This document shows positions 20,235-56,499 of a DNA stretch of 64,000 nucleotides, in pieces. The notes beneath the pieces are model-generated. The model had not been told where the DNA came from. It saw nothing but the letters and a program-made list of their open reading frames with translations, and did no database searches. The number at the start of each line of letters is the position of its first letter. Positions within the stretch are counted from its first letter, which is position 1. A program made the translations under genes and the position numbers. This DNA comes from Candidatus Latescibacterota bacterium. Its GTDB lineage: Bacteria > Latescibacterota > UBA2968 > GCA-2709665. The stretch is from NCBI GenBank assembly GCA_965222075.1, contig OZ244937.1:3968001-4032000 (forward strand), in the 5' to 3' direction.

Positions 20235-20268
20235 CCTGCCTGCCGAGCATCCATCCGGCGCAGGCAGG
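20235..20268. mobile_element. Short CCTG...CAGG hairpin element (34 bp), intergenic
   Basis: cctgcctgccgagcatccatccggcgcaggcagg between G and T; same termini as the elements inside the IS4. Confidence 0.75.
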
Positions 20269-23580: not shown

Positions 23581-23990
23581 ACCCGAGGCGATCGACGCAC
23601 AATGGAAAGTAGCGCCTTTTTTGCCTGTGACGCGTCTGGATACTCAGGGGGAAAAAGCGGGTTTACGTCCCCGCCCAGATCGAATCTGTAACCCTGAGAT
23701 CCCTTCGGCCTGGTAACGATTTACCCACTCACCTGCCTGTGCGTGCGGGGGCACGCACGCAGATTCAGGTATATCGTGTCTTTACGTCGCTTTTTTAATA
23801 ATCCCCTTTGGGCTACCTGCCTGCGCCAAGCGGAGCGCGGCAGGCAGGCCTGACGGCCTGACATCCCAGAAGCAATCTTTAAAATCGCACAGGCACGTTC
23901 ACGCATATACGGCTTGTCCGAATGGTCGCGGGCCTGTTCCACTTCGCTGCTTTGCTCTGCTGTCAACGAAATCCTCAGTATTTTAGGCAT
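23581..23990 (-). mobile_element. IS630-family transposase remnant (N-terminal HTH) disrupted by two hairpin insertions
   Basis: Removing 23816-23848 and 23732-23769 gives MPKILRISLTAEQ...RERACAILKIASGMSGRQVAQRGLLKKRRKDTIYEWVNRYQAEGISGLQIRSGRGRKPAFSP, an IS630-type HTH region ending at a T5C5 run. Confidence 0.8.
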
Positions 23991-24369: not shown

Positions 24370-24800
24370 TTGGGGCACCCATTATGATGAAAATAGTTGC
24401 GTTGACAGACTTGTACTGTAACCGTCCATGCCCGCTCACACGTTTCGCCTCTGCGATCCCCCTCCCCACCGGCCAGGTATCGACCACTGCGGGTTGGCGC
24501 CCCTAACTTGCCGACTCCCCCGGTCTGGTGCGGGGGGAAGGGGCTTTTCCGCGCAGATCCCCCCAGCACCATCGCCCAACAACGCCCAAAAGGTCCGCTG
24601 GGCACAAACGCCTGCTTCCACCACAGGGGCAGTTCGCGGAAAAGCAGCCCCCGCGGCGTCTGAGCGGCCTGCCTGCAGCGCGGTGCGCCGCGCAGGCAGG
24701 CGCCCTTCTTTTTCGGCCTTTTTCTTGGGCGAACAAGAAAAAGGCCAGGAGTAAAAGAACAGTTGGACCTGGGTATCTGTTATTTTCCAAGCAGTTTCTA
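24370..24800. repeat. ~430-bp structured non-coding repeat element, copy 1
   Basis: Aligns by eye with 54067-54456 plus 56010-56057; ends in the hairpin ggcctttttcttgggcgaacaagaaaaaggcc followed by ...tattttccaagcagtttct. Confidence 0.85.
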
Positions 24801-53277: not shown

Positions 53278-54051
53278 CTATACCTCCCACCTGAATGTTC
53301 TTAAGGAAACCAGGTATGCCAGTACAGTAATTCCCGCAAGAAACAGCAATGAGTTCACATGCTGAGAGACCGGGTCTCCGAGCCAGATACCGGAGAAGGT
53401 CTCTACGACATGGGTCAAAGGAGAAGCGTTGCTCAACTTCTGCAACCATTCCGGAAACAATTGCCGAGGAAAAGTAGCCCCTGATATAAAAAACATGGTG
53501 AGAAACAGAAATTTGCCCAACGCCTGGATGCTTCTTGGGGATTTAGATAGCCCACTTACAAAGAAGCCCAGAGCGAAAAAGCACGCGGTACAGACTACAG
53601 CTACGAACAGAACAGGAGCCCAATGCCCACGAAAATTGATATCAAAGACACATTCTGCTACAACAGCCAGGATCAATGAAGATATCACTAAAACGACAAA
53701 TTGGACCGCAGCGTGGGCACAAAGATAGCTCCCAAGTGAGACGGGGCTTACGACGTAACGCTTTAGAACGCCAATCTGACGGTAGGAAGCCAGAAAGTGG
53801 GTTAGATTGACAAGGCCGGCTTGTCCAACGTATGCTGCCATTAGCGCAGGTGCATAAAAATCCATATAGCGCAGGTCAGAGTGGTCCCACAGAGGAGAGT
53901 CCCCAAAAAGAGAACCGAATAATAGAAAGAGCAGTACAGGGAAAACGAAGGTAAAGAAGGCTGCTACCGGTTGACGAAGGAACAATTTGCTCTCTATAAC
54001 CCACAGCGTAAAGAAGCTGCGAAACCATACGCTTCTACCAGAAGATGCCAT
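53278..54051 (-). CDS. ABC-2 type permease
   Basis: FFTFVFPVLLFLLFG, FFISGATFP and SPLTHVVE; six TM segments. Confidence 0.88.
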   Translation of the reverse strand: MASSGRSVWFRSFFTLWVIESKLFLRQPVAAFFTFVFPVLLFLLFGSLFGDSPLWDHSDLRYMDFYAPALMAAYVGQAGLVNLTHFLASYRQIGVLKRYVVSPVSLGSYLCAHAAVQFVVLVISSLILAVVAECVFDINFRGHWAPVLFVAVVCTACFFALGFFVSGLSKSPRSIQALGKFLFLTMFFISGATFPRQLFPEWLQKLSNASPLTHVVETFSGIWLGDPVSQHVNSLLFLAGITVLAYLVSLRTFRWEV

Positions 54052-54456
54052 CTTAGCCAGAATCCTATTGGGGCACCCATGATGATGAAAATAGTTGCAT
54101 TAACAGACTTGTACTGTAACGTCCGCCGTCCGTACACGCCCTCTCACGCGTTTCGCCTCTGCGATCCCACCACCACCACGCCTGCCTGTCTGCGTGCGAC
54201 GCACAGGCAGGCGGGCTGGCGCCCCTAACTTGCCGACTCCCCCGGGTTGGTGTGGGGTGAAGGGGCTTTTCCGCGCAGATCCCCCCAGCACCTGCGCCCA
54301 AAAACGCCCAAAAGGTCCGCAGGGCACAAACGCCTGCTTACACCACAGGCGCAGTTCGCGGAAAAGCAGCCCCCGCGGCGTTTGAGCGGCCTGCCTGCAG
54401 CGCGGTGCGCCGCGCAGGCAGGCGCCCTTCTTTTTCGGCCTTTTTCTTGGGCGAAC

Positions 54457-56001
54457 CAGTAGTTTCCGGTTAGGATTTTGCAGAGGGGAGACAGCGAGGT
54501 CACAGAAGGCTTGATAAAAGGCGCTCTCCATGAAAGATTAGAGTTGTCAGTAAAAGACTCTACCCTTTCAAAGGAGGTGCCCATGTCGATCCTGTCCTGT
54601 TCCCCACTGTCTCCCATGGTAGAAGAAAAAGGATTTCCTAAAGGATCGCCAACATTTTCTGTCCTGCTTGGGCCTTTGGAAGCTTGCTTACCTTATCTGA
54701 CTCCGTTGGAATCAGGTAGCAACAAGCCGTTGACTTACACGTTTGCGCACCTGTCTGCGTAAGGAACGCACAGGCAGGTCAAATTCGGGGCTTAGTGTAT
54801 TATCATACAGAGACTTGCACGCCTGCCTGCCGCGCCGAACGCGGCGCAGGCAGGTCTGCTCAGGATCTGCTTTTCGCGGCAAGATGTGACCTGTCTGCGT
54901 GCAACGCACAGGCAGGTGGGTTTGTGAACCGATTGCTGGTGCCCCCATCAGGTCTTGGTAAGAGCACTTTTTATGAAGCCAATGCCAGTCGGGGCAGCAC
55001 TCAGATGATCGAGTTGGTGGACCTGTCTGCGTGCAACGCACAGGCAGGTCGACTTTCTAAGAAAGCCGCCAAATGCGTAGGCCGCTCTTACGCTGAGCTT
55101 GGCCATTTGGTGGTCATCGACGGGAGCCTGATTGGTGCGTGTTTGTCCATGACCTGGGCAGACGTATCTTGGAGATGTGCGCAAGGCCAAGATGCACTTA
55201 GGCTTGGATCTTTCCGGCTCGATTCCAAGAAAGATGATCCTGACCGAAGGGAGAGGCGCGGAAAGACCGTTTGTCTCTCATCTTCTAAAAGAAGGTGAAA
55301 CCGGCGTTCTGGATCGGGGCTACCAGGACCATCAGCGGTTTGATGCCTGGATTGCAGAAGGCAAGCACATAGTGGTGCGCTTGAAGAAGAACACCAAATG
55401 GGAAGTCATAGAAGCCCTACCATTTGAAAAAGGCACATCTATCTTCTTTTTTTCCAAAGTCTTACTGGGTGATCCCGTGCACAGGATGACCCATCCAGTC
55501 TACCTAATAGGCTTCGAAAGTCGAGGCAAAACATACTGGATCGCTACCGACAGAGAGGACCTGACCGCAGAGCAAATCGCCTTCATTTTCTCGCTTAGAT
55601 GGCAAGTTGAAACCTTCTTCGCCTGGTGGAAAAAGCACCTCAAGGTCTATCATCTCACCTGCCTGTGCGTTGCACGCTTGCCTGCGCGCAGCGCGCAAGC
55701 AGGCAGACAGGTCTCCAGAAACCCTCACGGTGTCCTGGTGCAATTGCTTTCTGGACTGATCACTTATCTTCTGTTGGTGATCTATTTCCATCAACGCTAT
55801 GGACAACGGCCTTGTGTGAAATATCTGCGACAGTTGAGATGGGATATCCGACATGAAACCCAGCCACCGACCCTTGTGCATATCTACCTGGTGATACAGA
55901 CCTGCCTGCGCCGCAGCGCGGCAGGCAGGCAGATACGCGGTTATCTCCACTGATTTTCCTATGGCTTTTGAACCCAGCAATTTTCTAACCGGAAATTGCT
56001 G
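54457..56001 (+). mobile_element. IS4-family insertion sequence, inactivated
   Basis: TIRs cagtagtttccggttag / ctaaccggaaattgctg; 8-bp TSD GGGCGAAC at 54449-54456 and 56002-56009. Confidence 0.92.
54583..55988 (+). pseudogene. IS4-family DDE transposase interrupted by 7 hairpin insertions and one +1 frameshift
   Basis: Motifs IDGSLI, DRGY and RWQVETFFAWWK. 1406 nt minus 199 nt of hairpins minus 1 nt = 1206 nt, i.e. 401 aa plus stop. Confidence 0.9.
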
Positions 56002-56091
56002 GGGCGAACAAGAAAAAGGCCAAGAGTAAAAGAAAGGTTATTTTCTAAGCAGTTTCTCACACCCACCCTATTTCCGAGCCTCCCTCTGCAT

Positions 56092-56499
56092 TCAGAGCCT
56101 GGCACCCCGGATCACCGTCTGCAGGGCGTCAAGGTGGGTCCGCAAGGCCGTCCTGCCCTTCTCCGTGAGGCTGTACCAGCTCACCGGCTTGCGATTTTCA
56201 AACTGCTTGGACACACCCACGTACCCGGCATCCTCCAGTTTACGCAGGTGCGCTCCCATATTCCCATCCGTCTCCTTGAGAAGCTGCTTCAGGCTGGTAA
56301 ACGACATCGCGTCTGTGTCGGCCAGCAGCACACACACACCGAGCCGGCTGCGGTGTTCCAGCAGCTTGTCCAGCCATGCCAGGCCTTTGGAAGTAACTTC
56401 AGCGGGTTGCGCCATCTTTTCTCTGTCTACACGCTCTCGAATATCGGAGCACGCCAGGCCTTTGGAAGTGACTTCAGCGGGTTGCGGTGGCTTTGTCAT
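56092..56499 (-). CDS. Winged-helix transcriptional regulator (HTH_34/ArsR-MarR-like)
   Basis: LDKLLEHRSRLG...SFTSLKQLLKETDGNMGAHLRKLEDAGYV...YSLTEKGR. Confidence 0.88.
   Translation of the reverse strand: MTKPPQPAEVTSKGLACSDIRERVDREKMAQPAEVTSKGLAWLDKLLEHRSRLGVCVLLADTDAMSFTSLKQLLKETDGNMGAHLRKLEDAGYVGVSKQFENRKPVSWYSLTEKGRTALRTHLDALQTVIRGARL

Follow-up and report, generated by a model that had tools for sequence, protein, structure and literature searches.

Repeated insertion of small hairpins into an IS4-family transposase gene of a Latescibacterota bacterium

How does a transposase gene come to hold seven small hairpins and still remain readable as a gene? The question is raised by an IS4-family insertion sequence (IS) at positions 54457 to 56001 of the window, a 64,000-nucleotide (nt) stretch of contig OZ244937.1 from a Candidatus Latescibacterota bacterium (genome G000, 5.36 Mb). 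The initial annotation, made from the letters of the window, had proposed that the transposase was hit seven times by hairpins whose removal restores the reading frame, in an element with terminal inverted repeats (TIRs) and target-site duplication (TSD) still recognisable. All six insert blocks, which amount to seven hairpins because one is nested in another, were found where it had placed them, and both TIRs and TSD could be traced. The features are listed below; the T-type and S-type of hairpin are defined further on.

54449..54456, no strand: left copy of the 8-bp TSD, GGGCGAAC, in the palindrome loop GGCCTTTTTCTTG...CAAGAAAAAGGCC
54457..56001, + strand: IS4-family IS, 1545 bp as found, 1345 bp minus hairpins and extra G
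54457..54481, + strand: left TIR, matching the right one at 20 of 25 positions
54583..55988, + strand: transposase gene (DDE_Tnp_1), broken here by the TAA of hairpin 1 and by the extra G; 401 amino acids (aa) after removal of the inserts
54750..54778, + strand: hairpin site 1, T-type, 29 nt with TAA; empty site TTTGCGCA^TCAGAT (GCGCA^TCAGAT)
54822..54854, + strand: hairpin site 2, S-type 33-mer, in frame, encoding PACRAERGAGR; empty site CTTGCAC(G)^TCTGC
54890..54916, + strand: hairpin site 3, T-type 27-mer, in frame, encoding LSACNAQAG; empty site TGTGA^TGGGTT; not in homolog P0001
55022..55048, + strand: hairpin site 4, T-type 27-mer, same sequence as site 3; empty site GTGGA^TCGACT
55164, + strand: extra frame-shifting G
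55658..55711, + strand: hairpin site 5, 54 nt, with the outer T-type 27-mer (55658-55676 and 55704-55711) in opposite orientation; empty site ATCTCA^TCTCCAG
55677..55703, + strand: inner 27-mer nested in site 5, foot CTTGCCTG...CAAGCAGG, inserted at GCACG^CAGACAGG of the outer hairpin
55901..55929, + strand: hairpin site 6, S-type 29-mer, frame-shifting; empty site ATACAGA^CAGATAC
55977..56001, - strand: right TIR, containing the restored stop codon at 55986-55988
56002..56009, no strand: right copy of the 8-bp TSD, GGGCGAAC

Excision of the six blocks and of the G at 55164 by script gave, as had been predicted, an open reading frame (ORF) of 401 aa and 1206 nt including the stop, with the ATG at 54583 and the TAA ending at 55988 inside the right TIR. 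This reconstructed ORF is identical to the natural 401-aa homolog P0009 at 400/401 residues with 0 gap columns, aligns gap-free also to P0010, P0011, P0013, P0016 and P0019, and shows 2 gap columns against P0014 which are due to P0014's own TS duplication. Most of the 120 listed homologs are 401 aa long, and homologs need neither additional nor missing residues at the six junctions. On the DNA level the same picture is obtained with the hairpin-free copies of a congener (G001) and of a member of the same family (G004), against which the window copy shows gaps of exactly 29, 33, 27, 27, 54 and 29 nt, plus 1 nt. No target duplication was found in this alignment at any of the 6 hairpin sites. The assignment to the IS4 family is also borne out: the longest ORF of the IS (258 aa) matches Pfam PF01609 (DDE_Tnp_1, E = 1.7e-18), and the hairpin-free P0009 reaches 162 bits on NCBIfam NF033592 (IS4 family), where the cut-off is 115. 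In IS4 transposases a signature Y-(2)-R-(3)-E-(6)-K follows the third catalytic residue; it is found here as SLRWQVETFFAWWKKH, invariant or nearly so in the homolog alignment, with the spacing judged by eye. A DDE_Tnp_1/IS4 transposase, TIRs with a target duplication and the Y-R-E-K signature are thus found together. The boundaries of the IS are backed by public-run contigs which join the flanks with 1553 nt skipped.

The inserts themselves show some variation between sources. In P0001, a homolog from another assembly (5.24-Mb contig) which appears to be from the same species as the window assembly, site 1 holds a 30-nt in-frame hairpin encoding LSACGHAQAG, and contig base changes in public runs X1 (in part) and X2 match this 30-nt form, so that the TAA-bearing 29-mer can be read as its decayed form. 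The initial statement that the two 29-mers shift the frame is correct for the window, but for site 1 it does not extend to the in-frame form found elsewhere. The hairpin at site 6 swaps the last 18 aa for 16 others. The extra G is missing in every covering contig (4/4 runs) and in both G001 and G004, and is probably private to this assembly or an assembly error. Contigs with an empty site 2 (run X4) or an empty site 5 (runs X1 and X4) coexist with contigs ending at filled hairpins, and site 5 lacks its nested 27-mer in P0003-P0007 and in one RNA-library contig of run X12. In the latter contig site 5 keeps its outer hairpin and site 6 is filled as well, a weak hint that hairpins remain in the transcript, with DNA carry-over possible. 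It should be noted that public-run contigs are short and broken at hairpins, that length variants in hairpin 6 (1 or 4 letters) and high hairpin depths may come from other family copies, and that uncovered stretches are uninformative.

That the transposase was hit seven times is correct as a count of hairpins, but a hit is not a death: P0001 has an open 447-aa frame with six hairpins, all of those before the C-terminal tail are in frame, and the sole frame-shifting hairpin is the last one, at the extreme C-terminus. In the predicted structure of P0009 four of the sites lie in loops, one at a helix start and one in the middle of a helix, while residues 118-318, the catalytic core of the model, are free of all six sites (P = 0.015), an avoidance which on this model may be called mildly significant. 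Since no site lies in 118-318 and the P0001 hairpins upstream of the tail are in frame, the IS seems to filter which hairpins are kept.

The hairpins belong to a family that is dispersed over the genome. In a census by a loose foot pattern 243 hairpins of 19-45 nt were found in G000, while two control patterns, with the same foot motifs arranged otherwise, gave 47 and 8; in the window the pattern was counted 11 times vs 0 in 100 shuffles. The usual hairpin measures 25-36 nt. Its foot of 8 bp (CCTGYCTG / CAGRCAGG) is conserved, its upper stem and loop vary, and a bulge or mismatches make its two strands fold unlike each other. Among 120 distinct hairpin sequences the median folding z-score is -3.0 and 77% have z < -2. 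The interiors without the feet give a weak signal (61% fold better than the shuffled mean), and a pairing table that demands strict symmetry fails on the upper stems owing to the bulge. The following types were distinguished.

T-type: CCTGCCTGTGCG..CGCAGACAGG; one strand has G.T pairs, the other C.A mismatches
S-type: CCTGCCTGC..GCAGGCAGG, with the same 8-bp foot as the T-type
Third type: CTTGCCTG/CAAGCAGG foot, nested in T-type hairpins at one same internal position in about 10 places

An Rfam search of window positions 53900-56200 returned no family at E up to 0.1, and in the literature searched no account was found of CCTGCCTG-footed hairpins, or of repeats like the repetitive extragenic palindromes (REPs) of other bacteria, in Latescibacterota. 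Three further hairpins of the family are present in the window, at 20235-20268 (34 nt), 23816-23848 (33 nt) and 24668-24700 (33 nt).

Hairpin lengths peak at 27 nt (51 copies) and 33 nt (93 copies), and 186/243 are multiples of three. According to a codon-usage classifier trained on 537 long ORFs, 153/243 hairpins are in noncoding DNA vs 15% of random positions, and 27/243 are inside genes vs 48% of random positions; the classifier is insensitive, and for this reason the true in-gene count is probably above 27. Of the in-gene hairpins 26/27 have a length that is a multiple of three, vs 108/153 of the noncoding ones (P = 0.001). Host genes with hairpins are ordinary ones and include those for an AcrB-family protein, HsdR, a molybdopterin dehydrogenase (xanthine-dehydrogenase-type) subunit, a thiamine pyrophosphate (TPP) enzyme, an amidase and a hydantoinase. 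In the AcrB-family gene 27 nt are missing in 3/3 aligned relatives, and the empty site in the congener, TTTTCCGA^TCACC, shows no duplication. No neighbour within 400 bp is present for 173/243 hairpins, and no spacing is favoured. At G000:C1:1139014-1139359 three identical 27-mers with near-identical flanks lie about 150-165 bp apart, which looks like a hairpin carried within a tandem repeat.

The natural empty sites allow the rules of insertion to be read. At all 7 resolved sites (6 in the IS and the one in the AcrB-family gene) target duplication is absent, and the unit gained is in every case a single 27-33-nt hairpin. When hairpins were oriented by their own asymmetry before the flanks were analysed, C was found at -4 in 73/92 distinct T-type contexts (P = 1e-22, consensus CCGA^T) and in 56/99 S-type contexts (P = 3e-8, consensus C[C/A]G[G/A]^), with no mirror signal on the opposite hairpin flank in either set. 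The C-N-S-R bases are part of the target, because the empty sites have them too. CAGG, with which the element itself ends at its 3' side, fits C-N-S-R as well, as does the sequence at the nesting sites (CACG^ and CGCG^); of the IS junctions 5/6 fit C-N-S-R^Y on either strand, vs 72 of about 1344 possible positions. The comparisons thus show that hairpins insert cleanly and singly, that the C-N-S-R tetranucleotide lies 5' of the junction at one particular end of the hairpin, that copies in genes are almost always in frame and that nesting has a fixed place. An element that depends on an imperfect hairpin, duplicates no target, has a tetranucleotide target on one side only and ends in a similar cut site of its own bears the combined hallmarks of single-strand transposition by HUH enzymes of the Y1 type.

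The alleles of the IS form a natural ladder.

No hairpin: P0009 to P0011 and P0013 to P0016
Site 5 only: P0005, P0006, P0007
Site 6 only: P0008; P0012 is a variant form
Sites 4, 5 and 6: P0004
Sites 3, 4 with a nested hairpin, 5 and 6: P0003
Sites 1, 2, 4, 5 with a nested hairpin, and 6: P0001
The P0001 set plus site 3, without a nest in site 4: window copy

Near-identical alleles thus carry 0, 1, 3, 5, 6 or 7 hairpins, and the homologs, with none to six, do not share one insertion pattern. Hairpin peptides are present in 9/112 full-length homologs, all nine at least 87% identical to the window protein, and absent from the other 103/112, which include all those below 87% identity. A tree built from 383 backbone columns, hairpin peptides left out, contains two supported clades (98/91 and 100/99), and P0003 looks recombinant. 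The 383-column backbones of P0001 (six hairpins) and P0006 (one) are identical, as are those of P0008 (one) and P0014 (none), so that each clade contains such a pair. Identical backbones with unequal occupancy indicate several insertions within less time than one amino-acid substitution, which makes insertion into the IS recent and supports the initial proposal that it was fast; that some runs hold both empty and filled alleles also points to recency.

The initial annotation also held that insertion was strongly localised. The IS locus is indeed the densest hairpin cluster of the genome, with 8 hairpins in 1745 bp when the two just upstream are included:

54181..54211, + strand: T-type 27-mer with extra CCTG
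54390..54422, + strand: S-type 33-mer within a longer dispersed repeat; contigs without this hairpin in runs X1, X2 and X4

For a stretch as long as the IS the expectation is 0.07 hairpins at the genome rate and 0.30 at the noncoding rate (Poisson P about 8e-7 even at noncoding density). However, other transposase loci are enriched too. Three Pfam DDE models and two Y1 loci defined 20 transposase loci (32 kb in total). Within 600 bp of these loci 23/243 hairpins were found, where 1.5 to 6.3 are expected, and with this IS left out there are still 17 vs 1.4 to 5.9 expected (P = 2e-13 and 1.5e-4), 10/19 merged transposase intervals holding at least one hairpin. The build-up of hairpins is therefore general to mobile or dispensable DNA, with no special targeting of this one gene; most simply, insertion sequences would be the most extensive stretches in which the host does not select against insertions. 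The initial interpretation is on the whole supported, the localisation being a property of mobile DNA in general. One 27-mer variant, T27, is present three times in the IS. Together with donors just upstream it gives a hint of local hops, and no more than a hint since this variant makes up about a quarter of all T-type 27-mers.

Two other transposase genes deserve mention. A second DDE_Tnp_1 gene, at G000:C1:1604218-1604777 with a duplicate at 4161490-4162049, carries three hairpins (25, 27 and 25 nt) in each copy, and its Pfam match is divided between frames; as the same three hairpins are in both copies, they were inserted before the element duplicated. A DDE_3 (IS630-like) transposase gene, G000:C1:1870250-1870703, is cut exactly by a 34-nt hairpin (1870461-1870494), with further hairpins nearby at 1869670 and 1872327.

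The IS itself is present in G000 as a single full-length copy, the other 63 DNA matches being hairpin-sized or end-sized pieces. It looks foreign by composition, because the GC content of its backbone is 48.9% vs 59.3% for the genome. It sits in a palindrome, GGCCTTTTTCTTG-GGCGAAC-AAGAAAAAGGCC (window 54436-54456 and 56002-56022), which belongs to a repeat of about 300 bp that is dispersed over G000 (some 90 BLAST matches). In G001 the IS likewise lies in a palindrome of this type, and since both copies do so the IS may target this dispersed palindromic repeat, as some IS elements target REPs. [quoted passage not shown] One public run containing IS sequence is labelled 'sponge metagenome', and the host bacterium is apparently sponge-associated.

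A candidate for the enzyme that would move the hairpins is a single-copy ORF of 255 aa at G000:C1:3242104-3242871 (L093:1605-2369), which resembles the REP-associated tyrosine transposases (RAYTs). Its family has 7735 representative clusters at E up to 1e-3, and residues H138, H140 and Y220 are invariant in 73 family sequences. The profile of these 73 members has in the PDB a sole match, 4er8 (E. coli TnpA-REP, E = 4e-10), in an alignment which covers the HUH motif and the C-terminal tyrosine helix. An AlphaFold model of the candidate (predicted local distance difference test, pLDDT, 87) likewise has 4er8 as its top Foldseek match (E = 3e-7), followed by the IS608 and ISDra2 transposases. Two long extra helices (residues 36-61 and 68-98) separate the first strand of the model from its HUH strand, an insert of about 60 residues that the 165-aa E. 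coli enzyme is without. Orthologs named 'delta' (full length, at least 70% identity) were found besides G000 in G009, G012, G017 (with an internal TAG) and G019, and those named 'gamma' (at least 77% identity) in G002, G003, G009, G018, G020 and G021. Among 41 related genomes the ten carriers of delta or gamma have 14-215 hairpins each and the 31 non-carriers 0-6, except G001 (18), G013 (19) and G024 (79). The association of hairpin count with gene presence is significant (Mann-Whitney P = 2e-6 overall and 1e-3 within one genus, the genomes being related and not independent). IS copies of G001 and G004, hosts without gamma or delta genes, are hairpin-free. This co-occurrence of gene and hairpins is to be taken as a lead, not as proof.

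A distant RAYT-like paralog, 47-50% identical to gamma, was noticed inside open frames of 1200-1441 aa, of which the one in G003 contains two RAYT-like matches; these could be fusions or tandem genes. Its loci are:

G002:C2:164031-170337
G003:C1:3070596-3072674
G020:C1:1912806-1913372
G021:C1:4547682-4548257

Other candidates were set aside. Pfam Y1_Tnp has 2 loci in G000, an ordinary IS200 TnpA and a broken copy; no hairpin of the family flanks the IS200 locus, and its own end hairpins are unlike the family. The ORFs bracketed by hairpins code for a sigma-70 factor, a family 9 glycosyltransferase, a DNA methylase, a sulfatase-modifying-factor/VWA protein, a helix-turn-helix (HTH) fragment and one protein without a Pfam match, none of them plausible as the enzyme.

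Elements of a comparable kind are known from other bacteria. The hairpins resemble the REP/RAYT system in being GC-rich imperfect palindromes of 20-40 nt in hundreds of copies, mostly extragenic with some in ORFs, in having multiple subfamilies in one genome, and in the presence of a single-copy Y1 HUH homolog whose best match in both sequence and fold is 4er8. They differ in that insertion is documented here base by base from natural empty and filled alleles. In IS200/IS605 elements insertion takes place without target duplication, 3' of a short tetra- or pentanucleotide, with imperfect hairpins read on one strand; these elements and their short non-autonomous derivatives measure at least about 100 bp and carry two subterminal hairpins apart from each other. 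The present hairpins likewise insert without duplication 3' of a short specific sequence, but here a single hairpin is the whole element and the replication-strand bias is weak (60:40). RPEs (Rickettsia palindromic elements) are about 100-150 bp long and belong to a reduced intracellular genome. The likeness to them lies in in-frame palindromic inserts in genes that probably stay functional; the present hairpins are different in that they have 25-36 nt and are mostly extragenic, with seven in one transposase gene. In cyanobacteria, Elhai and co-workers reportedly found in 2008 hairpin repeats of about 20-30 nt with mobile behaviour, nested in other mobile elements; those small dispersed repeats are of another sequence family and another phylum. 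A paper on such repeats describes RPEs as palindromic repeats lying in frame in genes, reports REPs inside ORFs besides RPEs inserted in frame, and gives the REPs a GTAG or CGTC tag at one end (PMC3733652, Di Nocera et al. 2013). In a second paper it is argued that the mobile unit is the inverted REP doublet (the REP doublet forming a hairpin, REPIN) and that singlets are dead remnants, and no singlet excision was found (PMC3116915, Bertels and Rainey 2011). REPINs are proposed to be non-autonomous and RAYT-dependent, as is proposed here for the present hairpins, and for both population data show forms without the element.

From all this we consider it fairly probable, with real room for doubt, that the inserts are REP-like single hairpins, that a RAYT-like enzyme moves them through a single-stranded DNA stage, and that they build up in mobile DNA which is dispensable. 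An IS4-family element would have landed in the loop of a dispersed palindrome, and small GC-rich hairpins of one family would then have colonised it stepwise. Their movement would pass through folded single strands of DNA, cut and joined in the manner of the HUH Y1 enzymes of IS200/IS605 and REP/RAYT, with the enzyme presumably supplied in trans by the RAYT-like gene at G000:C1:3242104-3242871. In the IS they could pile up as host selection would not act against them there, and the IS would tolerate in-frame additions of 9-11 residues outside the catalytic core. Adjacent donor hairpins would permit local hops.

Several observations weigh against this explanation. With regard to the target and the strand, the oriented C at -4 is found at only 3/6 IS sites, the other three having T, and agreement with the replichore as judged by GC skew is seen in 60/100 T-type copies (P = 0.057), although a single-strand mechanism on the lagging strand usually gives a stronger orientation bias. 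With regard to the element, the hairpins are without GTAG or CGTC, their conserved part being the CCTGYCTG/CAGRCAGG foot with the ends CCTG and CAGG, and the 173/243 singlets, as opposed to inverted doublets, set them apart from REPINs. With regard to the enzyme, the candidate scores 47 bits on the NCBI RAYT model NF047646, where the cut-off is 80, and is below the Pfam Y1_Tnp cut-off as well; in addition to these scores, the helical insert and the lack of flanking hairpins (no REPtron) separate it from known RAYTs. Hairpins were found within 1.5 kb of 0/5 delta loci, only G021 of 4 distinct gamma loci scanned has one (7 nt past the stop), and the split into T-type and S-type does not map onto the gamma and delta gene types. 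The link of enzyme and hairpins is a co-occurrence in kin genomes, with the gamma and delta types defined after the hit lists had been seen, and the 79 hairpins of G024 occur with neither gene. Finally, sites 4, 5 and 6 are filled in both clades of the IS, which may come from recurrent hits, recombination between copies or precise loss.

The points on the enzyme leave most room for an account in which elements and single-strand chemistry are the same but the work is done by another enzyme, which might be the genome's ordinary IS200/IS605 TnpA, operating in trans, or some protein still to be recognised, while the RAYT-like gene co-occurs by ancestry. An intact IS200-type TnpA is present in G000, and both the hairpins of G024 and the want of hairpins around the RAYT-like gene would be understandable. 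Nevertheless, in the 41 genomes Y1_Tnp counts do not track hairpins (G004 has 32 vs 2 hairpins, G038 75 vs 1, G019 0 vs 133), and the CCTGCCTG foot has no likeness to the hairpins at the IS200 ends, CCCCTTCC..GGAAGGGG and CCCCGCCC..GGGCGGGG. We regard this account as possible, though not likely. A bolder version of the preferred explanation, in which the single 25-36-nt hairpin, and not the REP doublet, is the true replicative unit and a domesticated RAYT-like host enzyme loads the hairpins preferentially into incoming mobile DNA, perhaps owing to exposed single strands or repeat-rich landing sites, appears rather improbable to us. Such preferential targeting is nevertheless conceivable, because the enrichment exceeds what noncoding density predicts and backbones with zero substitutions differ by five hairpins.

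It might also be supposed that mostly loss is seen, i.e. that a fully loaded ancestral IS had its hairpins precisely removed in one lineage or another with no repeated recent insertion. Where no target is duplicated, an exact excision would give back the sequence as it was, a behaviour known from IS200/IS605, and the mosaic occupancy, with sites 4, 5 and 6 common to both clades, would be accounted for. On the other hand the 103 hairpin-free homologs and the empty copies of G001 and G004 indicate that the empty state is ancestral, and some of the loaded copies lack the nested 27-mer and some lack site 3, so we hold predominant loss to be quite unlikely. Very improbable is the proposal that the hairpins are ultra-short MITEs whose 8-bp feet, which are perfect or near-perfect inverted repeats, are read as TIRs and cut and pasted by one of the several DDE transposase families of the genome: DDE insertion leaves a target duplication, found at 0/7 resolved sites, the flank preference is one-sided, and there is no full transposase among ORFs tightly bracketed by whole hairpins, a parent IS with CCTGCCTG...CAGGCAGG ends not having been searched for by single feet. 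Hardly credible, lastly, is an origin on the spot by template switching, palindrome-forming repair or faulty assembly. Loops are indeed hypervariable with small length steps, and palindromes are error-prone in assembly, a possible source of both the extra G and the 29-mer with TAA. This origin is nevertheless already contradicted: identical 27-, 30- and 33-mers are found at unrelated loci and in other genomes, the inserts share no sequence with their flanks, and both filled and empty forms were seen across independent assemblies as well as in 4 runs, which come from 4 studies.

Elements of this kind are thus already known; the present case stands apart by the foot, the single-hairpin unit, the explicit one-sided target, the fixed nesting site, the divergent RAYT-like candidate and, above all, the ladder of alleles in one gene. 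The spread of REP-type sequences has so far been argued mainly from static copies, and direct evidence on insertion, target and unit size is scarce. An allele ladder with base-exact empty sites lets the insertion rules be read, namely no duplication, a one-sided C-N-S-R, a unit of one hairpin, a fixed nesting position and a bias to in-frame copies, and a concrete candidate enzyme has been identified for test. If the RAYT-like enzyme were indeed a domesticated one that loads hairpins preferentially into incoming elements, the system would be a slow mutagenic brake on transposons, and its in-frame copies would seed new peptide loops in host proteins. The locus indicates as well that an insertion sequence can serve as a sink for smaller parasites and yet keep an open frame of 447 aa.

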